Source of the DNA: Lederbergia citri
GTDB taxonomy: Bacteria > Bacillota > Bacilli > Bacillales > Bacillaceae_C
Assembly: GCF_018343625.1 (NCBI RefSeq)
Contig: NZ_JAGYPG010000001.1
Location: 190,342-230,341, forward strand
Length of the DNA stretch: 40,000 nucleotides
Direction of reading: 5' to 3'
Each line of letters opens with the position of its first letter. Within the stretch, counting starts at the first letter, position 1. The notes below the pieces were generated by a model. It had not been told where the DNA came from, made no database searches, and worked only from the letters and a program-made list of their open reading frames with translations. Shown here piece after piece: positions 10,701-40,000 of this stretch. Made by a program: the position numbers and the translations under genes.

Positions 10701-10856
10701 ATGTTTGGTTATGGAGGATATGGCGGTTTCGGAGGTTTCGGTGGCTGCTGCGGTTATGGTGGCTACGGTGGAGGCTTCTATGGCGGGAATGCGTTTGTTT
10801 TGATTGTTGTATTGTTCATCTTGCTAATCATTGTAGGAGCCAGCTTTTGCTTCTAA
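10701..10856 (+). CDS. YjcZ-like tiny Gly-rich membrane sporulation protein (51 aa)
   Basis: GAGGTGA RBS, then the protein [51 protein letters not shown], then a terminator. This replaces the track ORF 10691..10924, which reads the same DNA in another frame. Confidence 0.7.
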
Positions 10857-19755: not shown

Positions 19756-19791
19756 TCGACCATCCCCCTTTTTAATTAGTTTAGTAGATTG

Positions 19792-19809
19792 TATCACTCC
19801 GGAGTGATA
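19792..19809. promoter_or_regulatory. 18-bp perfect palindrome upstream of int
   Basis: TATCACTCCGGAGTGATA lies about 37 nt upstream of the integrase start. With no loop, it is more likely a dimeric protein-binding site than an RNA hairpin. Confidence 0.4.
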
Positions 19810-25868: not shown

Positions 25869-26118
25869 AAATGTGTCATGCTAGTTACAAAATAATAATG
25901 AAAATTAGCCGATAAGAATCAATAATAATGATTATTTTTAGAGGGTACAGAGGGAATAGCTGATAATATTTTTAATATAAAAGAAGGTAATTATCTGTAA
26001 ATGTTGAAATAAATAGTGTCAGGATAAATCATTCCCCTTAGAATCTTCTGACAATGTCCTCTAATTCTTTTGCCGCTTTCTTGTGTTTACTTCTTTTTTG
26101 ATTGTAATAATAATACAC

Positions 26119-26155
26119 AAAAGATCAAATGGTTTTGTTAACTATTTGATCTTTT
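26119..26155. terminator. orphan strong hairpin in the ORF-free region
   Basis: AAAAGATCAAAT-13 nt-ATTTGATCTTTT is a perfect 12-bp stem with T/A runs on both sides. No adjacent gene. Confidence 0.4.
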
Positions 26156-26538
26156 CTTATTTTTAGAAGAAAAATTTTTGCTTTCTTGTAATTAAAATTT
26201 AGTAAAAATTTATTAACGAAAAAAATAAATTCAATGTACGAAAAAAATCCATACAATAGGATAATATTAAATGTTTACTATCAAGGAAAATGAAAGAAAA
26301 CGAACAAATTTGCATTACATTAACATTTATTAAGTTTGACTGTTTTAGGCTATATTCAACAGCTTTCGGCTGTTTTTAGGGATTTATAATTATAATGGGA
26401 ATGTAAATTTTCGGTTCCTCAATGAACATTTTTTTTGAATTTTAAATGACTAATCACTCTTAAAATAAAGGTTTTTTTGAAAAGAAATATAAAGAACAGG
26501 TATGAAAAAAACTTTTATGATAGAGAGGGGTTTTCTAA

Positions 26539-26766
26539 ATGACAAAAGAATTAGAAGTATTAGTAGATAGTATTGATCGCATTGCAAATGGCTGTATTAT
26601 TGCAGTAGCAATCTTTTTTGTAATCACTTTAATTAAGTTTTTCATTAATAATAGGATAAATGATAATTTACCAGAACAAATGGCAAAAAAAATTGAGACA
26701 ATACTAGAGTGGACAAGTTTAATGACATTCAACATTGGAGTAATGTGGGCTATTTTGAACAACTAA
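26539..26766 (+). CDS. hypothetical 75-aa two-TM protein
   Basis: GAGAGGGG RBS 8 nt upstream. Two hydrophobic segments. It is isolated in a 1.5-kb AT-rich gap. Confidence 0.45.
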   Translation: MTKELEVLVDSIDRIANGCIIAVAIFFVITLIKFFINNRINDNLPEQMAKKIETILEWTSLMTFNIGVMWAILNN

Positions 26767-26957
26767 ACAATTATTTAACAACTATTTGTAAAAGGAACTG
26801 AAAAACGTTTGCAATCATTTTGATTATGGTCATTGTATTTAACCACCGTTGCCATACTTTTTACAATTAAGTAAAAAAGATTGTACCAGTAAATGACATA
26901 CACTTACCACTGAATATTTTTGTGTAATTAATGTTACTCTCACGATAGATTTACACT

Positions 26958-26991
26958 ATTATTGCGTAGTAGACTCTTACTACGCAATAAT
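26958..26991. terminator. orphan perfect hairpin
   Basis: ATTATTGCGTAGTA-gactct-TACTACGCAATAAT is a 14-bp perfect stem. No ORF ends nearby. Confidence 0.35.
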
Positions 26992-27395
26992 TATCATCAT
27001 TTTTAGATGCAATTGTGGTGAATGTACCTAAAACTGAACGGATTAGGTTTGTGCAAGAAAGAAAGCAGAAATAAAAAGAGATAAACAGTTATCCATTTTT
27101 TAATATTCCAACGCAATTTTGCGGTGTGTTTTTATAAATAAAAACAACCATTAACTCTTCGAAAATCTAAAGAGTGCCACAAAAAATTTTTTTTATCTAA
27201 CTTCTTCCTCGTTCCTAAAAAGTTAAACAGACTATATAACATATATTTGTAAACAATGAGACAAGTGAAGAAGCTTGCACAAGATATTGAAGATCGTTTA
27301 ATTGGTTGTATTAATAAAAGTATATAGAAGGATAATAAGGGAAGAGGATAACTAATTATTCTGTTCCCTTTATTATTTAAGAAAGAGGTATGGTA

Positions 27396-27881
27396 ATGAA
27401 AAGATATACTTACATAATGTGGGGGTTATTAATTTTCCCATTGTTAACGATACCACTAATAGGAAAGAAACATTTTTTTCGATTTTTACCATCAGCGACT
27501 TTTGTTTCTTTGCTTTTAGCGCTAATGAGTGAAATAGCGCAATCTAGAAGATGGTGGAAGGTGAAAATCAATTTAATACCTGATCTAACCACTAATGTTT
27601 CCTTTGTATTGAGCTCCTTTTTTGTAGGAACGTTATGGGTATTTAAATATTCATATGGGAATTTTTTTAAGTATCTAGGAGCAAACATTATTTTGGATTG
27701 GTTATTTTCATATCCTTTTACCACCTTGTTTCAAAAACTTAATGTATTCAAATTAATTCGGTTTAGACAACATCAAATCTTTCTAACATTTATTTCATTT
27801 TCACTTATCATTTATTGGTTCCAGAAAAAAGTTGAGGAGTATGTAGGTAAGTCAAAAGTTGAAGAGTTAAAAACCCCGTAG
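27396..27881 (+). CDS. hypothetical multi-TM membrane protein (161 aa)
   Basis: ATG 27396 lies 7 nt after GAAAGAGGT. About 5 hydrophobic segments. An AAAACCCCG...CAGGGTTTTT hairpin lies at its 3' end. Confidence 0.55.
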   Translation: MKRYTYIMWGLLIFPLLTIPLIGKKHFFRFLPSATFVSLLLALMSEIAQSRRWWKVKINLIPDLTTNVSFVLSSFFVGTLWVFKYSYGNFFKYLGANIILDWLFSYPFTTLFQKLNVFKLIRFRQHQIFLTFISFSLIIYWFQKKVEEYVGKSKVEELKTP

Positions 27882-27889
27882 CAATACAG

Positions 27890-28260
27890 GGTTTTTATAT
27901 ACCGAAGAATACGTTTTCCAACCACGATCTAAATTGAGGGCTTTATATCCTAAATTAATTAAAATTCTAGTGGCAGTACATATTTTACTGTTCTCTTCTT
28001 GATTTAATTTAAACACTTCACTAAGATTTCAAATATCTAAATTAAACTTTTTACTCATACTCTCAACCGTTTGAACCAACATCTTGCTCAGTCCCTTAAT
28101 CGTTTCCCCAATATAGTTAGGCAATCCACAGTTGGCAAATGAAATGTGTATCCCTTTTTCAAATAAAACAATCGTTGATGTTTCATCCAGCCTTCTCAAT
28201 CTTGCGGCAGTTGTTGCTTCTTCAGCAACTCCACCTACTATTACTACGTTTTTTATGCAT
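27890..28260 (-). pseudogene. decayed CoA-disulfide reductase (CoADR-rhodanese type) remnant
   Basis: The minus strand reads an N-terminal FAD-binding region, then an in-frame stop, then only a rhodanese-type C-terminal tail. The N-terminal region is IKNVVIVGGVAEEATTAARLRRLDETSTIVLFEKGIHISFANCGLPNYIGE...LVQTVESMSKKFNLDI, with GG changed to EE in the GxGxxG motif. It is out of frame with the ATG at 28260. The tail is CTATRILINLGYKALNLDRGWKTY. Most of the roughly 550-aa gene is missing. Confidence 0.65.
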
Positions 28261-28415
28261 GTTGATATCTCTATTAATTTTTATACTTTGATGTGTTAAA
28301 AGTCACACCTTGGAACTTGTTTTGGTTTTATATGGAGGGGTGTTAATAAACATATTTACCAGAAAAAAGAGAATTCTAAGTATGACTTGTATACTTCAAC
28401 ATAAGGAGTGACGAA

Positions 28416-28736
28416 ATGAATACTAAGTCAAAAGTTGCTGAGATTTTACCAAAAGAAGTATCTGAAAAAGTTAGGCAAGGAAAAGCGCAAAGTATTATCG
28501 ATGTTCGTGAACATGAAGAAGTTGTACAAGGGAAAATACCTGGTGCTTACCATATCCCTTTAGGAGAGCTTGAAAATAGATTACATGAAATTGACAAAGA
28601 CAAGGAGCATTTTATGGTATGTCGATCGGGGAGTCGGAGTGGGATGGCTGCTGAGTTTTTGCAAGATAAGGGGTATAAAGTGAAAAATATGGTTGGTGGA
28701 ATGCTAAATTGGGAAGATGAAGTTGAAAAACCGTAA
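28416..28736 (+). CDS. single-domain rhodanese sulfurtransferase (cluster 1)
   Basis: AAGGAG RBS. Active-site loop CRSGSRS. Paralog of 34745-35041. Confidence 0.85.
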   Translation: MNTKSKVAEILPKEVSEKVRQGKAQSIIDVREHEEVVQGKIPGAYHIPLGELENRLHEIDKDKEHFMVCRSGSRSGMAAEFLQDKGYKVKNMVGGMLNWEDEVEKP

Positions 28737-28756
28737 CCCAAGAAGGAGGAATCTCA

Positions 28757-29329
28757 ATGGAAGTTACAGTTAACAGGGTGTTAGATGCAAAGGGACTAGC
28801 TTGCCCGATGCCAATTGTAAAAACAAAAAAAGAAATGAACACCCTTGAACCAGGTGAAGTGATGGAAATTCAAGCTACCGATAAAGGTTCAACAGCTGAT
28901 TTAAAGGCTTGGGCTTCTAGTACCGGTCATCAATATTTAGGAACTGTAGAAGAGGGCGAGACATTAAAACATTATCTTCGAAAAGCTCGTTCAGAAGAAG
29001 AAAAACCTGAAGCAAAACATCCGGATGTGGTTCATTTAGATGAATTATTAAATAAATTAGATGGTAATGAAAAAGTAACTGTTTTAGATGTGAGAGAACC
29101 GGCTGAATATGCATTCGGTCATGTTCCAGGCGCCATAAATATCCCTCTTGGTGAATTAGAAAATCGGTTTGAAGAACTTAACAATGTAGACAATCTACAT
29201 GTCATTTGTAGGACGGGGAGTCGGAGTGATTTTGCTTCACAAAAGTTAACCGAAAAAGGTTTTAGAAACGTTAAAAATGTAGTTCCTGGAATGAAAGACT
29301 GGACAGGTCCGGTCGATAAAAATCATTAA
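28757..29329 (+). CDS. TusA-rhodanese fusion sulfurtransferase (YrkF-like, cluster 1)
   Basis: N-terminal TusA motif DAKGLACPMPIVKTKK and C-terminal rhodanese loop CRTGSRS. Confidence 0.85.
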   Translation: MEVTVNRVLDAKGLACPMPIVKTKKEMNTLEPGEVMEIQATDKGSTADLKAWASSTGHQYLGTVEEGETLKHYLRKARSEEEKPEAKHPDVVHLDELLNKLDGNEKVTVLDVREPAEYAFGHVPGAINIPLGELENRFEELNNVDNLHVICRTGSRSDFASQKLTEKGFRNVKNVVPGMKDWTGPVDKNH

Positions 29330-29345
29330 ACAAGGAGGAATAAAA

Positions 29346-29735
29346 ATGAAAGTAGCTATCATTGCCTCAAACGGTGGGATGTTTGATGCCTATAAAGTAT
29401 TCAATATTGCAACGGCTGCAGCTGCTACTGATGCTGAAGTGGGAATCTTTTTTACATTTGAAGGCTTAAATCTCATTCATAAAGAAGGTCATAAAAATTT
29501 GCCAATGCCTAAAGGAACAGAACATTTTCAAGAAGGATTTAAAAAAGCGAATGTTCCACCAGTTGAAGAGCTAGTTGCAATGGCGAGTGAGATGGGTGTA
29601 AAAATGATTGCGTGCCAAATGACAATGGATGTTATGAGTTTAGAAAAAGAGCATTTTGTAGAAGGGATTGATGTTGGCGGTGCAGTTACATTCCTATCCT
29701 TTGCTAAAGATGCAGACGTGACCCTTACGTTCTAA
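29346..29735 (+). CDS. DsrE/DsrF-like family protein (cluster 1)
   Basis: 129 aa with the conserved Cys in the IACQMTMDVM segment. Paralog of 35939-36331. Confidence 0.75.
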   Translation: MKVAIIASNGGMFDAYKVFNIATAAAATDAEVGIFFTFEGLNLIHKEGHKNLPMPKGTEHFQEGFKKANVPPVEELVAMASEMGVKMIACQMTMDVMSLEKEHFVEGIDVGGAVTFLSFAKDADVTLTF

Positions 29736-29746
29736 AGGAGTGAAGA

Positions 29747-29988
29747 ATGATGAGTAAGAATGTTACTGTCTATACCACAAACACACTTGTCCCTATTGTG
29801 TAATGATAAAAAACTTTTTAAATGAGCAAGGTGTGGCATTTAAAGAAGTAAATGTGCAAGAAGATCCTGCTGCAGGAGATAAATTGGTTGAAACAACAGG
29901 TCAGATGGGAGTCCCTCAAATTGAAATCAGTGGTGAGTGGGTTTTAGGGTATGATACCGAAACGGTTACTCAACTTTTAGAAAAGTAA
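29747..29988 (+). pseudogene. glutaredoxin-like gene with a frameshift just before the CPYC motif (cluster 1)
   Basis: After AAGGAG, the ATG at 29747 gives MMSKNVTVYTTNTLVPIV then a stop. Shifting by one base restores CPYCVMIKNFLNEQG..., which is the frame of track ORF 29803..29988. The copy-2 paralog has cacacgctgtccg where this copy has cacac-ttgtccc. Confidence 0.7.
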
Positions 29989-30001
29989 AAGGAGGAGACA
30001 C

Positions 30002-31138
30002 ATGGGAACAACAACATCTGTGAAAACAATATCTGTTAAAGATTTAGCTCGGAAAGTAATTAATCATGAAGACCTTTTCATTCTTGATGCACGAAATACA
30101 GATGATTTTGACGATTGGAAAATCGAGGGACGAAATATAGAGGTCATAAATAAGCCATACTTTGATCTTTTAGAAGGGGTAGATTCAATATTAGAGAAGT
30201 TACCAAAAAATAAAGAAATTTATGTCATCTGTGCAAAAGGTGGATCTTCTGAATTCGTTGCAGAACAAATTATGGGAGCTGGATTTACAGATGTTTATTC
30301 GGTTGAAGGTGGTATGAAAGCCTGGAGTGAACACCTTGAGCCAATAAAAATAGGTAGTTTAAAAAATGGAGGAAGCATCTATCAATTTGTACGTATTGGA
30401 AAAGGCTGCCTTTCCTACTTAATTGAGTCTGACGGGAAAGGGGCAATAATTGATACTAACAGAATGTTGTCTCCATATGAAGAGATGATAAAGGAACATA
30501 ATATTACGTTAACACACGTTTTAGATACTCATTTGCATGCTGACCATATTTCTGGTGGTAGAGAACTTGCTGAAAAACATGGTGCAACCTATTATTTACC
30601 ACCAAAGGATGCTACAGAAGTCACATATAACTATTCACAAATTAATGATGGCGATGAATACAAGGTTGGACAGACAACCATAAAAGCCATTTACTCTCCT
30701 GGGCATACCATTGGTAGTACATCTTTTGTCGTTGATGATCAATATTTGTTAACTGGTGACATTTTATTTATTGATTCCATTGGTCGCCCTGATCTAGCTG
30801 GTAAAGCTGAAGACTGGGTAGGAGATTTAAGAAATACCCTTTATCAACGTTACAAAGAGCTAGCTGATAATCTTCTAGTGCTACCTGCCCATTACATGGG
30901 AATTAACGAAATGAATGATGATGGAAGTATTTCAGAAAAACTTGGTGTGCTTTATCAACAAAATCATGGATTAAATATTAATGATGAAGCTGAATTCAGA
31001 AAAACGGTGACAGAAAATCTTCCGCCACAGCCAAATTCATACCAAGAAATTCGTGAAACAAATATGGGTAAAATCAAACCTGAGGAAGAACAACAAAGAG
31101 AAATGGAAATCGGTCCTAACCGATGTGCCGTTAGATAA
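30002..31138 (+). CDS. rhodanese-MBL fusion, persulfide-dioxygenase-like (YrkH/CstB-like, cluster 1)
   Basis: N-terminal rhodanese-like domain. MBL signature [11 protein letters not shown] plus SPGHTIGS and a C-terminal GPNRCAVR. Confidence 0.8.
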
Positions 31139-31150
31139 GGAGGTAATACC

Positions 31151-31378
31151 ATGGAAGCTAATAAAGTGTTAGATGCAAAAGGGCTAGCTTGTCCTATGCC
31201 AATTGTAAAAACAAAAAAAGAAATGGATGCATTAAGTTCAGGGGAGGTCCTTGAGATTCATGCAACAGATAAAGGGGCAAAAAATGACTTGACCGCATGG
31301 GCACAATCGGGTGGACACGAATTGCTAAAAGATGAAGAAGAAAATGGTGTTTATAAGTTCTGGTTAAAAAAAGGATAG
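31151..31378 (+). CDS. TusA-family sulfur carrier (YrkI-like, cluster 1)
   Basis: 75 aa with the motif DAKGLACPMPIVKTKK. Confidence 0.85.
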   Translation: MEANKVLDAKGLACPMPIVKTKKEMDALSSGEVLEIHATDKGAKNDLTAWAQSGGHELLKDEEENGVYKFWLKKG

Positions 31379-31384
31379 AATTTA

Positions 31385-31420
31385 GGGGAAGGTACCTTTA
31401 AACGGTTACCCTCCCCCTTT
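31385..31420 (+). terminator. GC-rich imperfect hairpin between tusA-like and tauE-like genes (cluster 1)
   Basis: GGGGAAGGTACC-tttaaac-GGTTACCCTCCCC stem (with bulges) followed by CTTT. A hairpin occupies the same position in cluster 2. Confidence 0.4.
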
Positions 31421-31438
31421 GATTGGAGGAAAAAGAAA

Positions 31439-32218
31439 GTGGATATTGCATTTATCGTGGTTATATTCCTTATCGGTTTTATTGGATCCTTCATATCCGG
31501 AATGGTTGGAATTGGTGGATCGATTATTAAGTATCCCATGCTTCTATACATTCCGCCACTGTTTGGATTAGCTGCATTTAGTGCACATGAGGTGTCTGGA
31601 ATTAGCGCCGTACAAGTTTTCTTCGCCACAATAGGGGGAGTATGGGCTTATAGAAAAGGCGGGTACTTGAATAAAACGTTAATTATATACATGGGTGTTG
31701 CCATATTAATTGGTAGTTTTATTGGTGGATATGGCTCAAAGCTCATGACCGAAAGTGGAATTAACTTTGTATATGGAATTCTAGCTTTAATCGCCGTTGT
31801 GATGATGTTCTTGCCTAAAAAAGGAATCGACGAGATCCCTCTTGATCAGGTGAAGTTTAATAAATGGCTCGCAGCTGTTCTAGCTTTAATAGTTGGGATT
31901 GGTGCGGGAATTGTTGGTGCTGCTGGTGCATTCATTTTAGTTCCTATCATGCTCGTAGTGCTAAAAATTCCAACTAGAATGACGATAGCGACTTCTTTGG
32001 CTATTACGTTTATTTCGTCAATTGGTGCAACTGTTGGGAAAATTACAACGGGTCAAGTTGAATATTATCCAGCGTTAATCATGGTTGTTGCAAGCCTAAT
32101 CGCTTCACCACTTGGTGCTAATTTTGGGAAAAAAATTAATACCAAAATCCTACAATGGATTTTGGCACTACTCATATTAGCTACTTCAATTAAAATTTGG
32201 TCTGATATTTTATTTTAA
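31439..32218 (+). CDS. TauE/SafE-family (DUF81) membrane transporter (YrkJ-like, cluster 1)
   Basis: GTG start after GGAGG. 259 aa with about 8 TM segments and Gly-rich repeats ([23 protein letters not shown]). Confidence 0.8.
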
Positions 32219-32394
32219 AACACCTTATTACTTTCAACGTATGTCTCAAGTGCAGGATGATATTCCCTTTGGAAATGATTATCTGGACATGATTTAATTA
32301 CAATTGAGAGTAATGAGTTCGTTTTATCGCTGACTAAATTTTTATTACAAGTAGGACATTTCTCATTGAAAAGAGATTTTAAAAAACGTTTCAT
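32215..32394 (-). CDS. unannotated 59-aa Cys-containing protein (CPxC...CPxxH)
   Basis: AGGAGG RBS 8 nt before the ATG at 32394. The protein is [59 protein letters not shown]. Its stop overlaps the tauE-like stop. It is just below the track cutoff. Confidence 0.4.
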
Positions 32395-32505
32395 ATAAGG
32401 TTCCTCCTATATCCTTTAATTCCTATAATTATACTAGGTATTATAGAAGATTTATTTTAAAAACTCAATGGGTTTATATACCAATCAACGAGAGGATGGG
32501 AATAC

Positions 32506-32907
32506 GTGAGAGATCTATTTCCACCAACTACAATTAAAGTAAAGTTAAACACTGATGATGGAATCAATAATGAAATAGAACGAAAAACTGCCCATAATAT
32601 CAACAAATACTACCGAAAAACTGAAGAAGAAATAGATAGACGTATTAAAGAATTAAATTATGAATGGGATACCGAAAGAGTTTTAGAACTTAACTTTGCA
32701 TCAATTGTATTGATATCATCTTTACTTGGATTATTAGGCAATAAAAAATGGATGGCATTGTCTGGAATTACAAGTGTGTTTATGATCCAACATTCTTTAC
32801 AGGGATGGTGCCCACCTTTACCGATTATTAGAAGAATGGGAATAAGGACAGCAGTGGAAATTACGAAGGAAAAGGAAGCTTTAAGAAAGCTTAAATCTTT
32901 AAAATGA
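32506..32907 (+). CDS. DUF2892 (YgaP-like membrane domain) protein
   Basis: C-terminal two-TM segment ending in LQGWCPPLPIIRRMG, typical of DUF2892. About 60 aa of soluble N-terminus. Confidence 0.65.
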   Translation: MRDLFPPTTIKVKLNTDDGINNEIERKTAHNINKYYRKTEEEIDRRIKELNYEWDTERVLELNFASIVLISSLLGLLGNKKWMALSGITSVFMIQHSLQGWCPPLPIIRRMGIRTAVEITKEKEALRKLKSLK

Positions 32908-32940
32908 AGAAATTCATCCTTAGGATAAATGCCTATAAAA

Positions 32941-32972
32941 GCTCATGAGATATTATTCATGGGCTCATTTTA
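32941..32972 (+). terminator. probable terminator
   Basis: GCTCATGA-gatattat-TCATGGGC stem (one G-U pair) followed by a T-rich tail. Confidence 0.45.
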
Positions 32973-32991
32973 TATATTTGTTTTTAGAGTG

Positions 32992-33020
32992 TTGACAATA
33001 TACCCAGTACGGTATATTAT
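32992..33020 (+). promoter_or_regulatory. sigma-A promoter with embedded CstR/CsoR-type operator (op1)
   Basis: TTGACA (32992-32997), a 17-nt spacer, then TATTAT (33015-33020). The spacer contains the palindrome ATATACC-CAGTAC-GGTATAT (32998-33017). Confidence 0.65.
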
Positions 33021-33059
33021 AAGTCTTGTCAGCCGCTGAAAGTTAGGAGGACAGTCAAC

Positions 33060-33443
33060 ATGGCGATTGTAATGTTTGTTTTATTAATAGTTGTCGGTTA
33101 CCTGATAGCTATAAGATATTTTCCAATCATAGGACTAAATTATATAGATAATAAGAAAGAACTAGATTTAACAACATTGATTAAAGTAGATGTTAGGGAC
33201 TATAATGAGTCCTATAAAAATCCCGTAAAGGGAGCAATCAATGTTCCAGTTGCATACCTGAAAAGGTACTACTTGGAAATACCAAGTAAAAATCTGATAG
33301 TAGTTGCTTCGAATCGCCTTGAAAAGAATGTTGGTATTCGATTCTTACGTACAAAGGGATTTAAGGTGGTTGGATACACAATTACTAATGAAGAACAAAC
33401 TGTATCAAAGGGAAATCAATTAAATAAAGAAACTTATTGTTAA
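33060..33443 (+). CDS. membrane-anchored rhodanese-homology protein lacking the catalytic Cys
   Basis: N-terminal TM segment. Rhodanese-like fold sequence (VDVRDYNESYKNPVKGAINVP) with VVASNRLEKN where paralogs have CQSGMRS or CRSGxRS. Confidence 0.65.
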   Translation: MAIVMFVLLIVVGYLIAIRYFPIIGLNYIDNKKELDLTTLIKVDVRDYNESYKNPVKGAINVPVAYLKRYYLEIPSKNLIVVASNRLEKNVGIRFLRTKGFKVVGYTITNEEQTVSKGNQLNKETYC

Positions 33444-33456
33444 GGGGGGAAAACAG

Positions 33457-33720
33457 ATGGAATACAACGATCAAATGAAAAACAGAGTAAAGCGCATTGA
33501 AGGACAACTTAGAGGAATCTTAAGAATGATGGAAGAAAATAAAGACTGTAAAGATGTTATCACTCAGTTATCTGCAGCAAGAACAGCAATTGATCGGACA
33601 ATTGGAGTTGTCGTCAGTTCAAATTTAGTGGAATGTGTTCGAAACGCCGAAGAAACTGGTGAGAGAAATACAGAAGAACTACTAAAAGAAGCTGTCAATC
33701 TGCTTGTAAGAAGTAGATAG
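33457..33720 (+). CDS. cstR: CsoR-family repressor of the CstR (persulfide-sensing) type
   Basis: 87 aa of DUF156/CsoR-like sequence (RIEGQLRGILRMMEE). Cys31 and Cys60 are present, with Asn56 where Cu-sensing CsoR has His. This C-N-C pattern and the Cys numbering match what I recall for S. aureus CstR. Confidence 0.7.
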   Translation: MEYNDQMKNRVKRIEGQLRGILRMMEENKDCKDVITQLSAARTAIDRTIGVVVSSNLVECVRNAEETGERNTEELLKEAVNLLVRSR

Positions 33721-33731
33721 AAATAAAGAGG

Positions 33732-33761
33732 TTGACTCTCTTTTATTTTTAATAATATAAT
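33732..33761 (+). promoter_or_regulatory. candidate promoter of the cluster-2 operon (TTGACT-18 nt-TATAAT)
   Basis: -35 at 33732-33737 and -10 at 33756-33761. Operator op2 overlaps the -10 and +1 region. Confidence 0.5.
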
Positions 33762-33774
33762 ACCCATGGGGGTA
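33760..33774. promoter_or_regulatory. CstR/CsoR-type operator op2
   Basis: aTACCC-ATGG-GGGTA palindrome. Confidence 0.6.
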
Positions 33775-33804
33775 GAGATAAGTGTAAAAAAATTATACAG
33801 ATAA

Positions 33805-33819
33805 ATACCCTAATGGGTA
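33805..33819. promoter_or_regulatory. CstR/CsoR-type operator op3
   Basis: aTACCC-TAAT-GGGTA palindrome, about 22 nt before the DsrE-like start. Confidence 0.6.
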
Positions 33820-33841
33820 ACAACAAAGAGGAGGAACAAGC

Positions 33842-34321
33842 ATGACAGAAAAGAAAAAAACCACAATCGTATTATTTAGTGGTGATTATGATAAAGCAAT
33901 GGCAGCTTATATTATTGCAAATGGTGCAGCTGCCTATGATCATGAAGTAACAATTTTCCACACATTTTGGGGGTTAAATGCTCTTCGAAAAGATGAAAAT
34001 ATTCAAGTTAAAAAGGGATTCATGGAAAAGATGTTTGGCAAAATGATGCCAAGAGGTGCTGACAAAATGGGTCTGTCAAAAATGCATTTCGCAGGTTTCG
34101 GTCCTAAAATGATTAAAGATGTGATGAAAAAGCATAATGCAATGCCACTTCCAGATTTAATTGAAATGGCAAAAGAACAAGATGTAAAGCTCGTTGCATG
34201 TACGATGACAATGGATTTATTAGGACTTCAAAAAGAAGAACTTTTAGATAATATTGAATATGCAGGTGTAGCTGCGTATTTAGCAGATGCAGAAGATGGA
34301 AATGTAAATCTATTTATCTAA
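33842..34321 (+). CDS. DsrE/DsrF-like protein (YrkE-like, 159 aa)
   Basis: DsrE-like core with an insert. Conserved Cys in the LVACTMTMDLLG segment. Confidence 0.75.
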   Translation: MTEKKKTTIVLFSGDYDKAMAAYIIANGAAAYDHEVTIFHTFWGLNALRKDENIQVKKGFMEKMFGKMMPRGADKMGLSKMHFAGFGPKMIKDVMKKHNAMPLPDLIEMAKEQDVKLVACTMTMDLLGLQKEELLDNIEYAGVAAYLADAEDGNVNLFI

Positions 34322-34366
34322 ACACGTTAGGGGGATTCTCCCCTACATAAAAAGGAGGGAGTAAGT

Positions 34367-34729
34367 TTGGAATATCTAAATTATATAATTATTGGACTCT
34401 TTCTGTTATTTATCATTAAACGAATCATCCCGGTTAAAGGTGTTAGACAAATTTCAACAACAGATTTAAAAAATGAATTAAAAGATAAGAATAAACAATT
34501 TGTTGACGTTCGTACTCCTGGGGAGTTTAAGGGAAATAACATCAAAGGGTTTAAAAACCTTCCGCTCCAACAACTTGCGCAAAAAGCGGAGAAGGAACTA
34601 TCAAAAGACAAAGAAGTAGTTGTTATATGTCAAAGTGGAATGAGAAGTCAAAATGCTACTAAAATATTAAAAAAATTAGGATTTACGAACGTGACAAATG
34701 TAAAAGGTGGTATGAGTGCCTGGAGATAA
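34367..34729 (+). CDS. membrane-anchored rhodanese sulfurtransferase
   Basis: TTG start after AGGAGGGAG. N-terminal TM segment and active loop CQSGMRS. Confidence 0.8.
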   Translation: MEYLNYIIIGLFLLFIIKRIIPVKGVRQISTTDLKNELKDKNKQFVDVRTPGEFKGNNIKGFKNLPLQQLAQKAEKELSKDKEVVVICQSGMRSQNATKILKKLGFTNVTNVKGGMSAWR

Positions 34730-34744
34730 AAAGGAGGAGAAAAA

Positions 34745-35041
34745 ATGAAGCAGTTATCCGCTAAAGAAGTAGAAACATTATTAGTAGAAGGTCAACCATT
34801 AAACCTAATTGATGTTCGTGAAGTGGAAGAAGTGGAAACTGGGAAAATCCCAGGAGCGATCCACATTCCACTAGGGTTATTAGAATTCCGTTTGCATGAA
34901 TTAGATAAGTCACAAGACTATATCATGGTTTGTCGTTCTGGTGCACGTAGTGGGCGCGCCTGTCAATTTCTTGAAAGTCATGGGTTTAAGGTAACCAACA
35001 TGACAGGCGGAATGCTTGCATGGGAAGGCGAAACAAAATAA
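34745..35041 (+). CDS. single-domain rhodanese sulfurtransferase (cluster 2)
   Basis: Active loop CRSGARS. 98 aa. Confidence 0.85.
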   Translation: MKQLSAKEVETLLVEGQPLNLIDVREVEEVETGKIPGAIHIPLGLLEFRLHELDKSQDYIMVCRSGARSGRACQFLESHGFKVTNMTGGMLAWEGETK

Positions 35042-35064
35042 GGTGATTTTTTTTAGAAGTTAAT

Positions 35065-35079
35065 ATACCCATAAGGGTA
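35065..35079. promoter_or_regulatory. CstR/CsoR-type operator op4 (internal)
   Basis: aTACCC-ATAA-GGGTA palindrome, 22 nt before the TusA-rhodanese start. Confidence 0.6.
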
Positions 35080-35101
35080 ATAAATAGGAGGTTTTTATAT
35101 T

Positions 35102-35677
35102 ATGAATTCATTAAAAACAGATCTTTTATTAGATGCAAAGGGCTTAGCTTGCCCAATGCCTATCGTAAAAACAAAAAAGGCAATGAATGAGTTACAAGCT
35201 GGTCAAGTCTTAGAGGTTCAAGCAACAGATAAAGGGTCAAAAGCTGACCTGGAAGCATGGGCAAAAAGCGCTGGACATCAGTATCTAGGCACAATTGAAC
35301 AAGGAGATGTGTTAAAGCATTACCTTAGAAAATCTTCCAATGATGGAACAATTGAAAGAAAACATCCTAATGTTACAAGTAATGAAGAGCTTGAAAAGAA
35401 GCTTTTAGCAAATGAGAATATTGTAGTTTTAGATGTGAGAGAAGCAGCAGAGTATGCTTTTAACCATATTCCTAATGCAATTTCAATTCCTTTAGGAGAG
35501 TTAGAAAATCGATTCTCAGAATTAAATACAGGAGATGAGATTTATGTGGTTTGCCGAACAGGAAACCGTAGTGATCTTGCAGCTCAAAAGTTAGCTGAAA
35601 AAGGTTTTTCTAATGTAATTAATGTTGTGCCAGGGATGAGTGCTTGGTCAGGCAAAACCAATAGTGTAAATAAATAA
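35102..35677 (+). CDS. TusA-rhodanese fusion sulfurtransferase (YrkF-like, cluster 2)
   Basis: TusA motif DAKGLACPMPIVKTKK plus rhodanese loop CRTGNRS. Confidence 0.85.
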   Translation: MNSLKTDLLLDAKGLACPMPIVKTKKAMNELQAGQVLEVQATDKGSKADLEAWAKSAGHQYLGTIEQGDVLKHYLRKSSNDGTIERKHPNVTSNEELEKKLLANENIVVLDVREAAEYAFNHIPNAISIPLGELENRFSELNTGDEIYVVCRTGNRSDLAAQKLAEKGFSNVINVVPGMSAWSGKTNSVNK

Positions 35678-35692
35678 GGAGGGAAAATTGAT

Positions 35693-35926
35693 ATGAGCAC
35701 AGTAACGGTATACACAACCACACGCTGTCCGTATTGTGTTATGTTAAAGAACTTTTTGGAAGATCAAAATATACCTTTTAGAGAGATAAATGTTGAAGGA
35801 AATCTAGAGATTATGAACCAAATAGTCGCGAAGACGGGTCAAATGGGAGTTCCTCAAACAGAGGTAAATGGTAAGTGGGTTGTTGGTTATGATCCAAATA
35901 ATATAATGCTAGCATTAAGAAACTAG
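35693..35926 (+). CDS. glutaredoxin-like protein (intact, CPYC)
   Basis: 77 aa with TRCPYCVMLKNFL and GQMGVPQTEVNGKWVVGYD. Confidence 0.8.
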   Translation: MSTVTVYTTTRCPYCVMLKNFLEDQNIPFREINVEGNLEIMNQIVAKTGQMGVPQTEVNGKWVVGYDPNNIMLALRN

Positions 35927-35938
35927 GAGGAATTAAGA

Positions 35939-36331
35939 ATGAATAAAGTAGCAATTATAGCAAGTAATGGTGGATTATTTGATGCATATAAAGTGTTTAA
36001 TATTGCAACAGCTGCAGCAGCATCGGATCAGGAAGTAGCGATTTTCTTTACATTTGAAGGATTAAACTTAATCCATAAAGAGTCATACAAACAGCTTCCA
36101 ATGCCGGAGGGAAAAGAACACTTTGCCGAAGGTTTTGCTAATGCAAATGTTCCAGCCATTCCAGAATTGGTAGCAATGGCACAAGAAATGGGTGTTAAGT
36201 TCATTGGTTGTCAAATGACAATGGATGTTATGGGATTAGAAAAAGACTCATTTATTGATGGAATTCAAGTTGGTGGAGCAGTAACCTTTTTAGAATATGC
36301 AAAGGATGCAGATGTAACACTTACTTTTTAA
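35939..36331 (+). CDS. DsrE/DsrF-like family protein (cluster 2)
   Basis: 130 aa with the GCQMTMDVMG segment. Paralog of 29346-29735. Confidence 0.75.
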   Translation: MNKVAIIASNGGLFDAYKVFNIATAAAASDQEVAIFFTFEGLNLIHKESYKQLPMPEGKEHFAEGFANANVPAIPELVAMAQEMGVKFIGCQMTMDVMGLEKDSFIDGIQVGGAVTFLEYAKDADVTLTF

Positions 36332-36357
36332 TCTTAAATATTTTTTTAAATTAAATT

Positions 36358-36372
36358 ATACCGTAGGGGGTA
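36358..36372. promoter_or_regulatory. CstR/CsoR-type operator op5 (internal, one mismatch)
   Basis: aTACCG-TAGG-GGGTA palindrome, about 8 nt before the rhodanese-MBL start. Confidence 0.5.
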
Positions 36373-36379
36373 AAAATAT

Positions 36380-37507
36380 ATGACTGTAAAAGCTATGACT
36401 TCAAAAGAAGTAACTCAAAAAGTATTTAATAAAGAAGAATTGTTTATTCTAGACGTTCGTAACGAAAGTGATTTTCAAGATTGGAAAATTGAAGGTGAAA
36501 ACTTTGACTATCTAAATATCCCGTATTTTGAATTACTGGATGGAGTGGAAGAAATCTTAGAGAAGCTTCCTTCTGATAGAGAAATAGTGGTTGTATGTGC
36601 TAAAGAAGGGTCATCTGTTATGGTGGCAGAGATGCTTTCTGAAGAAGGATTAACAGTTTCCTACTTACAAGGTGGCATGAAAGCATGGAGTGAACACTTA
36701 GAACCAGTTAAAGTTGGGGAATTAAGAGATGGAGGCAAAGTGTATCAGTTCGTTCGTATCGGAAAAGGATGTCTATCATACATGGTTACTTCAAACGGTG
36801 AAGCTGCGATTATCGATGCAACTCGTATGACTGACATTTATCTTGATTTTGCAAATGAAATTGGAGCAAAAATTACGCATGTTTTTGATACACACCTTCA
36901 TGCTGACCATATTTCAGGAGGAAGAGTGATTGCTGAGAGAACAGGTGCAACATATTGGTTACCTCCAAAAGATGCGACAGAAGTAACATTTGAGTACGAG
37001 GCTCTAGAAGGTGGAAATGTAGTGACAATCGGAAATACGGCGATTGATATTCATGCGCTATACTCTCCAGGTCATACGATCGGTTCTACATCTTTTGTTG
37101 TTGATGAAAAGTTCCTTCTTTCAGGAGATATATTATTCATCGATTCAATTGGAAGACCAGACCTTGCTGGTATGGCAGAGGATTGGGTAGCAGATTTAAG
37201 AGAAAGTCTGTACTTACGCTACAGAGAGCTATCAGAAGATTTAGTTGTTCTGCCAGCACACTTTATGATCATTGATGAATTGAATGACGATGGTAGTGTA
37301 TCAGAAAAATTAGGAACACTGTTTGCAAAAAATCACGGTTTAAACATTGAAGACGAAAATGAGTTCAGAAAACTAGTAACAGAAAACCTACCACCACAAC
37401 CAAATGCGTATCAAGAAATTCGTGAAACAAACATGGGGAAAATCAACCCTGATGAAGAAAAACAACGTGAAATGGAAATCGGACCAAACCGTTGTGCGGT
37501 TAGATAA
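36380..37507 (+). CDS. rhodanese-MBL fusion, persulfide-dioxygenase-like (YrkH/CstB-like, cluster 2)
   Basis: It shows the same motifs as 30002-31138 ([27 protein letters not shown]). Confidence 0.8.
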
Positions 37508-37532
37508 AAATTAATTTTAGGAGGAATAAACA

Positions 37533-37760
37533 ATGGAATCAACTAAAGTTTTAGACGCAAAAGGATTAGCATGTCCAATGCCAATTGTAAAAACAAAAAA
37601 AGCTATGAATGACTTAGCAACAGGAGAAGTTCTAGAAATTCATGCAACAGATAAGGGTGCTAAAAACGACCTGACAGCTTGGGCAACATCTGGTGGTCAT
37701 GAATTAATTAAACATGAAGAAGAAAATGATGTATTTAAATTTTGGATTAAAAAAGGTTGA
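37533..37760 (+). CDS. TusA-family sulfur carrier (YrkI-like, cluster 2)
   Basis: 75 aa. By my hand count, 62 of 75 residues are identical to the cluster-1 copy. Confidence 0.85.
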   Translation: MESTKVLDAKGLACPMPIVKTKKAMNDLATGEVLEIHATDKGAKNDLTAWATSGGHELIKHEEENDVFKFWIKKG

Positions 37761-37765
37761 AAAAT

Positions 37766-37796
37766 AAGGGGGAGCCTATGTAGGGTTCCCTTTTTT
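37766..37796 (+). terminator. hairpin plus T-run between tusA-like and tauE-like genes (cluster 2)
   Basis: GGGAGCC-tatgtag-GGTTCCC stem, extendable by G-U and A-U pairs, followed by TTTTTT. Confidence 0.55.
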
Positions 37797-37813
37797 CAAA
37801 AGGAGGTAACAAG

Positions 37814-38590
37814 ATGGATTTTGGATTTATTATTACAATATTTTTAATCGGATTTATCGGATCATACATTTCTGGAATGTTAGGTATTGGTGGGTCAATT
37901 ATTAAATACCCAATGTTATTATATATTCCACCATTATTTGGCTTAGCCGCTTTTAGTGCTCATGAGGTTTCTGGTATAAGTGCGATTCAAGTATTCTTTG
38001 CAACCATTGGTGGAGTTTGGGCATACCGAAAAGGTGGATATTTAAATAAAACGTTAATCATGTATATGGGTGCTAGTATTTTAGTAGGTAGTTTTGTTGG
38101 AGGATTTGGATCAAAGTTAATGTCAGAAGGAGGCATTAATTTAATTTATGGGATACTAGCTTTAATTGCAGCTGTGATGATGTTTATTCCGAAAAAGGGG
38201 ATAGATGATATCCCTTTAGATCAGGTGAAATTTAATAAATGGCTCGCAGCAATCTTAGCCCTTATTGTTGGTGTAGGTGCTGGAATCGTCGGGGCAGCAG
38301 GAGCCTTTTTATTAGTGCCAATCATGTTAGTGGTATTAAAAATTCCAACAAGAATGACAATCGCATCATCACTAGCAATTACGTTTATATCATCAATAGG
38401 TGCAACTGTCGGTAAAATTACAACTGGACAGATTGATTATTTCCCTGCTTTTATTATGGTCGTTGCAAGTTTACTTGCTTCCCCATTAGGAGCAATAGCT
38501 GGAAAAAAAGTGAATACAAAAATACTACAAATTATTTTGGCGTTATTAATTGGAGCTACTGCTGTTAAGATTTGGTTAGATATCTTATAA
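37814..38590 (+). CDS. TauE/SafE-family (DUF81) membrane transporter (YrkJ-like, cluster 2)
   Basis: 258 aa, highly similar to 31439-32218. Confidence 0.8.
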
Positions 38591-38642
38591 AAATAGGGGA
38601 AAATAAAACATAAAATTAGCTTATCTGAAAGAAGGGCTAAAA

Positions 38643-38990
38643 ATGACAAATAAGAAATACATCTATTTTGTATCGTTAAGTTCAAATGTTCCCTATGTAC
38701 TAAAGAAATCGATTGAAATGGTCAACCCAAAAAATGAAGTCACCATATTTTTTGATCTTGATGGAGCCCGTGTTTTAGATAAACGTTATTTAAAAAAAGT
38801 GACGAGAACGCATGGAGTGGATCTAGTCTCACTTTTTAAAATAGCTTTAGAGGCAGGGATTAAATTGTATGGTTGTCAAATGAACGTGTTAATTGCAGAT
38901 GGTTTGGAATTAATAGATGGAGCAGAGCTTGCAGGCGTTGTTACCTTTTTAGAAGCAGCCTACCAAGCTGATGCTGTTTTAAGCTATTAA
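38643..38990 (+). CDS. DsrE-like small protein with conserved Cys (115 aa)
   Basis: LYGCQMNV and GAELAGVVTFLE segments parallel the DsrE-like paralogs. No terminator lies after the tauE-like gene. Confidence 0.6.
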   Translation: MTNKKYIYFVSLSSNVPYVLKKSIEMVNPKNEVTIFFDLDGARVLDKRYLKKVTRTHGVDLVSLFKIALEAGIKLYGCQMNVLIADGLELIDGAELAGVVTFLEAAYQADAVLSY

Positions 38991-39004
38991 GAGGGGGACT
39001 AAAC

Positions 39005-39385
39005 ATGAATAAGAAAAAGGTTGTAGTATTAGCACTTCATGATGAATTAGAGTCTGCTTACCCACCCTTAAATGTTGCCGTTGGAGCTGCTTCATCCGGG
39101 GCTGATGTGATCTTAGCCTTCTCACGAAAAGGAGTAAACATTTTAGACCATAAATACATTCCTATTCCATCGGATGGAATTGAATACTTGTCTAATGCGC
39201 TATCTGATTTTAACGCACCTTCAATTAACGATTTACTTGAGATAGCTGTTGAATCTGGTGTTAAATTTTATGTGGTGGACTTAGATATAAAGGACCATAC
39301 GCAATTTAAGTATCCAGCTGAGCAAGTCCCCATTAAATGGGTTTTAAATGAGGCAGTTTCAGCGGATTTATTTGTACATTTTTAA
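39005..39385 (+). CDS. DsrE/DsrF-like small protein lacking the active-site Cys (126 aa)
   Basis: Same fold-type pattern (VVVLALHD..., GVKFYVVDLD) but with no Cys at all. Confidence 0.55.
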   Translation: MNKKKVVVLALHDELESAYPPLNVAVGAASSGADVILAFSRKGVNILDHKYIPIPSDGIEYLSNALSDFNAPSINDLLEIAVESGVKFYVVDLDIKDHTQFKYPAEQVPIKWVLNEAVSADLFVHF

Positions 39386-39404
39386 ATATATAGGAGGAAT
39401 AACG

Positions 39405-39680
39405 TTGATTAAAATTACAGATGCTGCGATATCAAAAATAAGACAAGAAGTTAAAGATGTAAAAAAACCGGTTATTCGTCTTGCAATGGGCATTGGTTGA
39501 GGGGGACCTCAGCTTCGCCTGGCTCTGGAAGAGTCAGCTTTAGAAAATGATGAAATCATTGAACAAGACGGCATAAGTTTTTTAGTACATGAAACAAGTA
39601 AACCATATTTTAATAATGTCAAAATTGATTATACCAAGACCATATTGGGTGGCGGGCAATTTATTGTCCTTACACTATAA
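39405..39680 (+). CDS. HesB/IscA-like ORF interrupted by an in-frame TGA at 39498-39500 (Sec candidate, readthrough or pseudogene)
   Basis: TTG start 7 nt after AGGAGG. The frame reads IKITDAAISKIRQEVKDVKKPVIRLAMGIG-TGA-GGPQLRLALEESALENDEIIEQDGISFLVHETSKPYFNNVKIDYTKTILGGGQFIVLTL. The stop falls where IscA/HesB proteins have the Cys of the GGGCSG block. The frame stays open for 59 more codons. Confidence 0.5.
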
Positions 39681-39704
39681 GTACATCTGAAAGCAGGAGT
39701 TTCT

Positions 39705-40000
39705 TTGAAGATTAAAACAATAGCATTATATCTACCCATTGTCATTTTAGTATTATATTTTGTCTATACCCAGTTTGAAAATAAAAGTATTAAAACAATT
39801 TCAATTAATGAGTTGGAGCAAAAATTACAGGATCCCAAATCAAGTAACATAATCTTTGTTGATGTGCGTGAACCCCATGAATATGAAGCAGGTCATATTA
39901 AAGGGATGAAAAACATTCCACTAAGCACATTAAAATCCGATTATAAAGGTCTGTCTAAAGATGCGGAAATCGTTCTATTGTGTAGGAGTGGGAAACGAAG
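39705..40000 (+). CDS. membrane-anchored rhodanese sulfurtransferase (3' end outside window)
   Basis: TTG start after GCAGGAG. N-terminal TM segment, VDVREPHEYEAGHIKG and the start of the active loop CRSGKR at the window edge. Confidence 0.7.
   Translation, partial: MKIKTIALYLPIVILVLYFVYTQFENKSIKTISINELEQKLQDPKSSNIIFVDVREPHEYEAGHIKGMKNIPLSTLKSDYKGLSKDAEIVLLCRSGKR

Follow-up and report, generated by a model that had tools for sequence, protein, structure and literature searches.

The 40,000-nucleotide stretch of the Lederbergia citri genome analyzed here (the window; contig NZ_JAGYPG010000001.1, positions 190,342 to 230,341) contains two sets of seven paralogous sulfur-trafficking genes, both on the plus strand, which we call module 1 (28416-32218) and module 2 (34745-38590), and a gene for a CstR-type repressor that lies between them. 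Among the known defences of Firmicutes against sulfide-derived reactive sulfur species, the cst and yrk clusters regulated by CstR are the main one. We consider it probable that the two modules form a single CstR-controlled regulon for the detoxification of sulfane sulfur (persulfide and polysulfide), of a two-module and mobile yrk/cst type, and that module 1 has recently been damaged in this genome.

The two modules and their divergence

A preliminary description, made from the letters of the window, had placed two diverged tandem clusters at these positions, with identical gene order and with only the second copy regulated and intact. Domain calls, taken as Pfam matches above curated cut-offs on the open reading frame (ORF) listing of the window, bear out both seven-gene sets. 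The gene order, however, is not the same. Module 1 runs rhodanese, TusA-rhodanese, short DsrE-like protein, truncated glutaredoxin ORF, rhodanese-metallo-β-lactamase (MBL), TusA and TauE, whereas module 2 runs rhodanese, TusA-rhodanese, glutaredoxin, short DsrE-like protein, rhodanese-MBL, TusA and TauE, so that dsrE-grx in copy 1 is grx-dsrE in copy 2. The genes of the modules, and of the segment that leads into module 2, are as follows.

28416-28736, plus strand: module 1 single-domain rhodanese, 106 aa, CRSGSRS loop (PF00581, 2e-18)
28757-29329, plus strand: module 1 TusA-rhodanese fusion, 190 aa (PF01206 and PF00581)
29346-29735, plus strand: module 1 short DsrE-like protein, 129 aa (PF13686/PF02635)
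29747-29988, plus strand: module 1 glutaredoxin pseudogene, with a 2-bp (AC) insertion at 29781-29786 just upstream of the CPYC motif
30002-31138, plus strand: module 1 rhodanese-MBL, persulfide-dioxygenase-like, type 1 clade, 378 aa (PF00581 and PF00753)
31151-31378, plus strand: module 1 TusA, 75 aa (PF01206, 1e-25)
31385-31416, plus strand: module 1 tusA-tauE hairpin, predicted fold -16.9 kcal/mol, no better than shuffles
31439-32218, plus strand: module 1 TauE-family exporter, 259 aa (PF01925, 4e-46)
33060-33443, plus strand: membrane-anchored rhodanese-like protein without catalytic Cys, 127 aa
33457-33720, plus strand: cstR, CsoR-family repressor, 87 aa (PF02583, 1e-24)
33842-34321, plus strand: YrkE-like long DsrE, 159 aa (PF13686, 7e-70)
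34367-34729, plus strand: membrane-anchored rhodanese, 120 aa, CQSGMRS loop (PF00581, 6e-22)
34745-35041, plus strand: module 2 rhodanese, 98 aa
35102-35677, plus strand: module 2 TusA-rhodanese, 191 aa
35693-35926, plus strand: module 2 glutaredoxin, 77 aa, CPYC, upstream of dsrE
35939-36331, plus strand: module 2 short DsrE-like protein, 130 aa
36380-37507, plus strand: module 2 rhodanese-MBL, type 2 clade, 375 aa
37533-37760, plus strand: module 2 TusA, 75 aa
37766-37794, plus strand: module 2 tusA-tauE terminator- or attenuator-like hairpin with a U run, predicted fold -16.4 kcal/mol, z -2.2
37814-38590, plus strand: module 2 TauE, 258 aa

The features that had been ascribed to copy 2 only, namely cstR, the YrkE-like DsrE, two anchored rhodanese-type proteins and operator sites, are all found there and only there, the operators as five ATACCC-N4-GGGTAT sites, with the qualification that one of the anchored proteins has no catalytic Cys. 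That protein (33060-33443) is 28% identical to the anchored rhodanese (E 4e-6, BLASTP), and Ala replaces the catalytic Cys.

The amino acid identity between paralogs is 56% for the rhodaneses, 63.5% for the TusA-rhodanese fusions, 79% for the DsrE-like proteins, 44% (over 61 aa) for the glutaredoxins, 66.5% for the rhodanese-MBLs, 85% for the TauE proteins and 82.7% for the TusA pair, where the 62 of 75 residues counted by hand in the preliminary description are exact. Synonymous sites differ throughout, as it had also stated; the proportion of synonymous differences (pS, Nei-Gojobori counting) is 0.65-0.82 and saturated in all paralog pairs. The ratio of nonsynonymous to synonymous divergence (dN/dS) is 0.04-0.23. 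Saturated pS together with low dN/dS means that the copies are old and that both have been under purifying selection. A repeat finder independently recovered the pair as diverged direct DNA repeats with a spacing of ~6.36 kb. Recent gene conversion was considered as the source of the higher TauE and TusA identity and was rejected, because pS is equally saturated there.

In a maximum likelihood tree of 113 rhodanese-MBL proteins, the window's two MBLs are far apart, one in a type 1 clade (62 rows, support 90) and the other in a type 2 clade (43 rows, SH-aLRT 98), and both clades span many Bacillaceae genera; type 2 is the kind present in single yrk-like clusters. An approximately unbiased (AU) test rejects the two MBLs as sisters (delta lnL 301, p-AU 8e-64). 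Paralog trees against database homologs had been proposed as the check that would separate duplication from xenology, and the MBL tree gave separate clades, not nearest neighbours with low dS. These sequence comparisons indicate that the modules are ancient paralogs that did not arise by local duplication, and that the split of the core genes (tusA-rhodanese, dsrE and rhodanese-MBL) predates many Bacillaceae genera. In the TauE tree, module-1-linked TauE proteins form one clade (96) nested within the module-2-linked ones, which suggests that the tusA-tauE tail of module 1 may be a later, but still old, copy of the module 2 tail. Separately, a third and more distant rhodanese-MBL type (45-52% identity) occurs in several Bacillales (loci L033, L034, L036, L038, L063 and L071), where it adjoins grx or an anchored rhodanese gene; genome G033 has four rhodanese-MBL genes.

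CstR operators and the lesions of module 1

The CstR protein of the window has Cys31 and Cys60, with Asn56 at the His (metal-ligand) position, which is the x-C-x-C pattern of CsoR-family persulfide sensors (bioRxiv 10.1101/2021.07.25.453692). A search of the whole 40-kb window for ATACCC-N4-GGGTAT with up to 2 mismatches predicts five CstR operators, starting at 33000, 33760, 33805, 35065 and 36358, and this motif fits the core of the cst operator as published for streptococci (bioRxiv 10.1101/2021.07.25.453692). A CstR operator is contained in each of the two best promoter-like sites.

32992-33020, plus strand: promoter-like site TTGACA-17-TATTAT, the best scoring, with operator 1 (33000-33015) in its spacer
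33732-33820, plus strand: promoter-like site TTGACT-18-TATAAT with operators 2 (33760-33775) and 3 (33805-33820), operator 2 overlapping the -10 element
35065-35080, no strand assigned: CstR operator 4, internal, upstream of the module 2 tusA-rhodanese gene
36358-36373, no strand assigned: CstR operator 5, internal, upstream of the module 2 rhodanese-MBL gene, 2 mismatches

Genome-wide, intergenic operator matches with at most 1 mismatch are confined to 33000-35080. Two further sites at this threshold, C2:174668 and C2:391108, lie inside genes and are taken to be chance matches.

In the case of module 1, the region directly upstream (28281-28415) contains zero operators at up to 2 mismatches and zero promoter-like sites at 9 or more of 12 matches. 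The references for this region and for the rest of module 1 were five metagenome contigs, all of which cover grx and encode a module 1 MBL 99% identical to that of the window, together with Bacillus sp. PS06. An intact, divergent cdr gene of 548 aa (Pyr_redox_2 plus rhodanese) is present in PS06 and in the three contigs that reach far enough upstream (L121-L123). Between cdr and module 1, contig L121 and PS06 have a perfect ATACCCTATTGGGTAT, followed by TATAAT in the L121-type contigs and by TATATT in PS06, and, as at the cstR promoters, this operator lies in the spacer of a promoter-like site (TTTATA-16). As read from these relatives, the intact design places both modules under predicted CstR control, with module 1 transcribed from a promoter that has the operator in its spacer and is shared with the divergent cdr. 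What the window retains of this region is the following.

27867-28280, minus strand: cdr remnant (coenzyme A (CoA)-disulfide/persulfide reductase-rhodanese), delimited by stop-to-stop frames and by alignment to the intact cdr of L121; the N-terminal part (~83 codons) occupies 28029-28280 and the C-terminal rhodanese tail 27867-28028
28281-28415, plus strand: cdr-module 1 intergenic region, with the scar of a ~39-bp deletion at ~28286-28289

Lost with these ~39 bp are the -10 box and the right-hand half of the CstR operator, both of which the relatives have. The cdr gene has a 1270-bp internal deletion (junction 27974/27975), and what is left of it also shows additional substitutions and a ribosome-binding site that is degraded; in tblastn, the intact PS06 Cdr reaches 23% coverage on it, including a stop. 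The destroyed cdr gene that had been described beside copy 1 is thus present on the minus strand, and a search of the genome with PS06 Cdr for the intact copy that had been envisaged elsewhere found only this remnant. The frameshift in the copy 1 grx is likewise present in the assembly, as a 2-bp AC insertion just before CPYC and not a 1-base loss; the grx orthologs in Bacillus sp. B1-b2, Sutcliffiella cohnii and the Cytobacillus plasmid pBO1 are intact (78-79 aa). Since relatives keep the operator, the -10 box, cdr and grx, the three lesions are derived in this genome. The remaining six module 1 ORFs are full-length and retain their catalytic motifs. Module 1 thus appears to lack regulation here through a recent, derived loss of its switch, its cdr partner and grx. 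That only one copy is regulated would hold for this genome, in which neither an operator nor a promoter-like site is predicted upstream of module 1, but not by design, since close relatives have a CstR-type operator at module 1.

Genes are also lost in relatives. In the five metagenome contigs of near-identical sequence, the same module 1 grx carries two 1-bp deletions, and in a sixth contig that is more distant it contains a nonsense codon; these independent, differing lesions make grx loss recurrent. In PS06, module 1 dsrE-grx is deleted, module 1 tauE is fragmented and the module 1 rhodanese gene contains a stop, while cdr is missing from B1-b2, pBO1 and S. cohnii. S. cohnii (DSM 6307) has a complete module 1, together with a truncated yrkE and a 5′ lesion in module 2 tauE. 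The decay of one copy suggested in the preliminary description is therefore seen in the three derived lesions of copy 1, but it is not specific to copy 1. The loss pattern across lineages fits functional overlap between the modules. Module 1 of the window may now be silent or expressed by read-through only, independently of CstR, and would be in an early stage of decay that is tolerated because module 2 is intact and overlaps with it in function.

Probable transfer as one block and the conserved layout

The closest database relatives of the module 1 MBL are 93-96% identical and share the double arrangement; they come from S. cohnii, PS06 and B1-b2, and the module 1 rhodanese is 96% identical to its B1-b2 ortholog. 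The window DNA is 89-94% identical to these three from ~27.3 kb onward and 94-97% identical in the extension that follows module 2, up to a common right-hand end at window ~42933, beyond which similarity stops. GyrA is only 79-81% identical to that of the same three, versus 88-90% for genomes of the same genus. A tblastn search of PLSDB locates the module 1 MBL, 95.5% identical, on three Cytobacillus plasmids of ~380 kb. On one of them, pBO1 (NZ_CP015507.1, 387 kb, Cytobacillus oceanisediminis 2691), all 7+7 genes are annotated intact, and the block adjoins IS21 and a recombinase. The alignment with pBO1 covers window positions 28292-32884 at 94.0% and 33186-42933 at 92.6% nucleotide identity, a block of ~15 kb. 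The same order and the same right end on a Cytobacillus megaplasmid and in distantly related Bacillaceae imply that the pair arrived as one unit. By these alignments the ~15-kb unit is horizontally mobile, carried on Cytobacillus megaplasmids and ~90-97% identical in DNA among distant Bacillaceae, and the pair appears to have entered this genome in a single acquisition, at a site with integrase-bearing DNA on its flanks.

To the left of the block, a tyrosine integrase gene (18643-19797) heads a low-GC (26-31%) island that extends up to ~27.2 kb, with genes for DUF5986, HTH-M78 peptidase and RuvC-like proteins. To the right lies a second integrase, a tyrosine-recombinase gene at window 43484-44308 (L146:3484-4308). 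A search for att-like direct repeats at the block ends found none that was convincing. In the same-genus genome G004, a single cstR cluster has flanks that are adjacent to each other here (G000:C2:975866-976131; 90-97% identical at the protein level), which makes this an empty site, and the single cluster of G017 is at yet another locus. The TehB-like methyltransferase gene (42320-42919) was considered as a chromosomal synteny anchor with same-genus genomes and was rejected, because it belongs to the mobile block of pBO1. Identity to L121, the nearest metagenome contig, is a mosaic within one contiguous block, from 100% for module 1 tauE and 99.6% for the module 1 MBL to 87-88% for module 2 dsrE and MBL, which indicates recombination among block variants.

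The arrangement extends beyond these relatives. Species-representative genomes were scanned with the module 1 MBL, which gave 64 named loci. A type 2 MBL lies within 10 kb of the type 1 MBL at 26 of the 55 type 1 loci, and at 19 cstR is between both. The window-like layout occurs in Cytobacillus, Neobacillus, Robertmurraya, Metabacillus, Halalkalibacter, Alkalihalobacterium, Alkalihalobacillus and Rossellomorea, as well as in S. cohnii and several unplaced 'Bacillus' species, and a stand-alone type 1 core of three genes (tusA-rhodanese, dsrE and rhodanese-MBL) is found in Mesobacillus and other genera. Within the same GTDB genus, 12 of 17 other genomes have one rhodanese-MBL match each (one of them broken), none has a second copy, and a type 1 MBL is found in 0 of the 17; where examined, the same-genus clusters are of the single cstR-yrkE-...-tauE, module 2 type. 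A literature search turned up no description of the two-module arrangement in Bacillaceae, which is not proof of absence, as one may exist.

Within 21 kb, the chromosome of Bacillus sp. SCS-153A (L086) has two full type 2 clusters headed by cstR and three rhodanese-MBL genes that belong to types 1 and 2, apparently a more recent, further amplification of the same system. Type 1 modules labelled Pseudomonas sp. ISL-84 (L084) and Chryseobacterium sp. ISL-80 (L093) are Mesobacillus-like and nest inside the Mesobacillus clade; these assemblies are probably mislabelled or contaminated. On pBO1 itself, genes for an ArsR/SmtB regulator, another MBL hydrolase and a transporter of the major facilitator superfamily (MFS) lie upstream of the block (L149 8653-10647), as does an operator-like site with 1 mismatch at 10759, and they may represent another unit linked to CstR, one that the window does not have.

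Predicted function, known systems and alternative readings

Both rhodanese-MBL copies have the HxHxDH, GHT and GD(I)LF motifs, and the closest solved relatives of copy 2 are 3TP9, 3R2U, 5VE3-5 (a persulfide dioxygenase (PDO)-rhodanese fusion), 4YSB and 4CHL ETHE1 (E 1e-10 to 1e-20). The predicted MBL fold, the His/His/Asp iron ligands and nearest structures that are PDOs together make these proteins PDO-like by sequence. In both, the rhodanese domain comes first (residues ~10-110) and the MBL domain follows at the C terminus; this is the YrkH-type arrangement and not the CstB/BpPRF order of MBL first and rhodanese C-terminal. The set that characterizes a yrk/cst-type cluster (rhodanese, TusA, DsrE-like protein, PDO-like MBL and TauE by cstR) occurs twice over, and the repressor has the CsoR fold with two Cys and no His, with palindromic operators in the promoters of the neighbouring sulfur genes. 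As had been described for the window, no sulfide:quinone reductase (SQR) was recognised in it, nor was one recognised among the 14 Pyr_redox_2 proteins of the genome. Individual examination covered six of the 14, the remaining eight being of other lengths. Four of the six, of ~400 aa, are closest to NDH-2 structures, with no SQR model reached and no SQR structure as best match; the two of ~346 aa, scanned against NCBIfam only, match families of the thioredoxin-reductase and ArsO type. A complete SQR-PDO sulfide oxidation pathway was accordingly not found. By analogy with characterized systems, the rhodanese, TusA and DsrE-like carriers would pick up and hand on sulfane sulfur, the PDO-like rhodanese-MBL would oxidise it, and TauE would export sulfite or thiosulfate, while glutaredoxin, plus the CoA-persulfide-reductase-like Cdr in intact relatives, would resolve thiol persulfides.

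Module 2 and its head have the same parts in the same order as the yrkD-yrkE-yrkF-yrkH-yrkI-yrkJ cluster of Bacillus licheniformis MW3 and B. subtilis (PMC9918477), in which YrkD corresponds to the CstR-like repressor, YrkE to the long DsrE, YrkF to TusA-rhodanese, YrkH to the rhodanese-MBL (putative PDO), YrkI to TusA and YrkJ to TauE. In B. licheniformis, the CstR homolog YrkD senses sulfane sulfur, which induces the cluster through the repressor; the yrkE-ydfQ genes aid tolerance of cysteine, sulfide and sulfane sulfur, several promoters are located inside the cluster, and a hairpin lies between yrkI and yrkJ (PMC9918477). The tusA-tauE hairpins of both modules are at this same position, and only the module 2 one folds better than shuffled sequences. 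Unlike yrk, the window has a second, anciently diverged module upstream of cstR, originally with a divergent cdr, and it additionally encodes a glutaredoxin, a short DsrE and further rhodaneses, of which two are membrane-anchored; the nreBC-sqr-pdo tail is absent here, and the block is plasmid-borne elsewhere.

Two other systems are comparable in part. Staphylococcus aureus has cst1 plus an SCCmec-borne cst2, and most such staphylococcal clusters are without sqr and still protect against polysulfides (bioRxiv 10.64898/2026.01.28.702267). The window resembles this case in having two paralogous clusters per genome, in S. aureus with one delivered by a mobile element, and in the lack of a recognised SQR. 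The S. aureus clusters, however, are separate loci, each with its own cstR and with multidomain CstA and CstB, whereas the modules here are adjacent, share one cstR, encode single- or two-domain carriers and moved as one unit. In the cstR-rhdA-coaP-rhdB operon of Enterococcus faecalis and streptococci (PMC9405070; bioRxiv 10.1101/2021.07.25.453692), a CstR operator of the type ATACCC...GGGTAT governs rhodaneses and a CoA-persulfide reductase with a C-terminal rhodanese domain, a counterpart of the Cdr that accompanies module 1 in intact relatives. Genes for a PDO-like MBL, TusA, DsrE or TauE are missing from those operons, and the present genome, for its part, has no more of the reductase gene than a remnant.

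Several observations weigh against a single, CstR-controlled regulon with a decaying module 1. An operator-like site (up to 2 mismatches, within 350 bp upstream) is found at only 13 of 53 type 1 modules, so that CstR control of module 1 is evident from sequence for some lineages and not for all. Six of the seven module 1 ORFs are intact, and tauE and the MBL are 99.6-100% identical to those of promoter-keeping lineages, which means that no decay is visible beyond the three lesions. The nesting of the TauE clades depends on midpoint rooting, with supports of 86-88. Placement of the window's type 2 MBL with same-genus type 2 sequences gives a marginal AU result (p 0.04) for a group picked after seeing the tree, so that the argument for transfer draws chiefly on the contrast in identity, on the boundary that the carriers share and on the copy found on the plasmid. 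Finally, the chemistry is assigned by family membership only. One alternative is a module 1 that is rewired and not decaying, with CstR-independent, constitutive or read-through expression and a distinct role (subfunctionalisation), the loss of grx and cdr being neutral trimming. Purifying selection over the history of the paralogs, the six ORFs with their catalytic Cys and metal motifs, the lack of a predicted plus strand terminator-like site from the gene upstream (27390-27881) to 28416, a promoter-like site inside the module (TTGACA-16-TATGGT at 28591-28618) and the type 1 modules without grx or cdr in many genera all speak for it. We nevertheless hold it to be unlikely, although it deserves the most weight among the alternatives: the upstream promoter-like site is gone, the nearest relatives, with 99% identical genes, keep both operator-promoter and cdr, intact ORFs may only mean that the lesions are recent, and sister lineages lose genes from either module, which suggests redundancy and not division of labour.

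The other readings concern the origin of the pair and the reality of the lesions. The preliminary description had offered an old duplication or two separate acquisitions, and saturated synonymous sites, MBL clades that lie apart and the rejected sisterhood uphold the former. That the modules are xenologs which landed side by side by chance would account for two MBLs in different clades, for the absence of module 1 from all same-genus genomes and, through recombination within the block, for the mosaic identity to L121; it is nonetheless very improbable, as the order module 1, cstR, module 2 and extension, with the right boundary, is repeated at ~90-97% on pBO1 and in B1-b2, S. cohnii and PS06, and the layout recurs at 19 loci in many genera. 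Tandem duplication within this lineage followed by rapid divergence can be practically discounted, even though the copies are adjacent, on the same strand and nearly equal in gene content, in view of the saturated synonymous sites, the AU result and orthologs of each copy in other genera that are 93-98% identical. The genome is a 9-contig draft, and assembly or sequencing errors could in principle have produced the grx frameshift and the small upstream deletion in a copy 1 that is intact and regulated. This, too, is improbable, given that consensus errors do not typically take the form of a 2-bp insertion or of deletions of 39 and 1270 bp, that the cdr remnant has accumulated extra substitutions and a degraded ribosome-binding site, and that independent, differing grx lesions are present in the sixth, related metagenome contig as well as in the five that represent a near-identical lineage.

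The regulon with a recently damaged module 1 represents no new mechanism and no new protein family; it is a two-module variant, horizontally mobile, of a system whose kind is already known. Many Bacillaceae carry two anciently diverged modules as a fixed pair under the control of one repressor, and this pair moves between genera on megaplasmids. Taken with the shedding of parts from either module in different lineages, this provides a natural experiment that can weigh redundancy against specialisation in the trafficking of sulfur. Convenient strains, distinguished from each other by defined natural lesions, are C. oceanisediminis 2691 with pBO1 (all intact), S. cohnii DSM 6307 (module 2 damaged) and the strain of this study (module 1 unregulated). 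More speculatively, the arrangement of module 1 with cdr, cstR, module 2 with the membrane-anchored rhodaneses and YrkE, and the redox extension could be a conserved, plasmid-transmissible, two-tier persulfide defence of Bacillaceae, in which module 1 with Cdr handles persulfides of CoA or low-molecular-weight thiols and module 2 handles membrane-proximal or inorganic polysulfide; the lineage-specific losses would then be habitat tuning and not plain redundancy, an idea that we put forward tentatively.

The remaining features of the block lie between the modules and downstream of module 2. An Rfam scan of 26000-40000 gave zero family matches.

32506-32907, plus strand: DUF2892/YgaP-like membrane protein between the modules, 133 aa (PF11127 weak; DUF2892 annotation on pBO1)
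38643-40000, plus strand: co-transferred extension, in-window start, with two DsrE-like genes, a HesB-like gene and an anchored rhodanese
Past the window end, up to window ~42933: remainder of the extension, with a 220-aa protein, DsbD/CcdA, redoxin and the TehB-like methyltransferase

Within the extension, the HesB/IscA-like ORF (39405-39690) has an in-frame TGA where the active-site Cys is expected.

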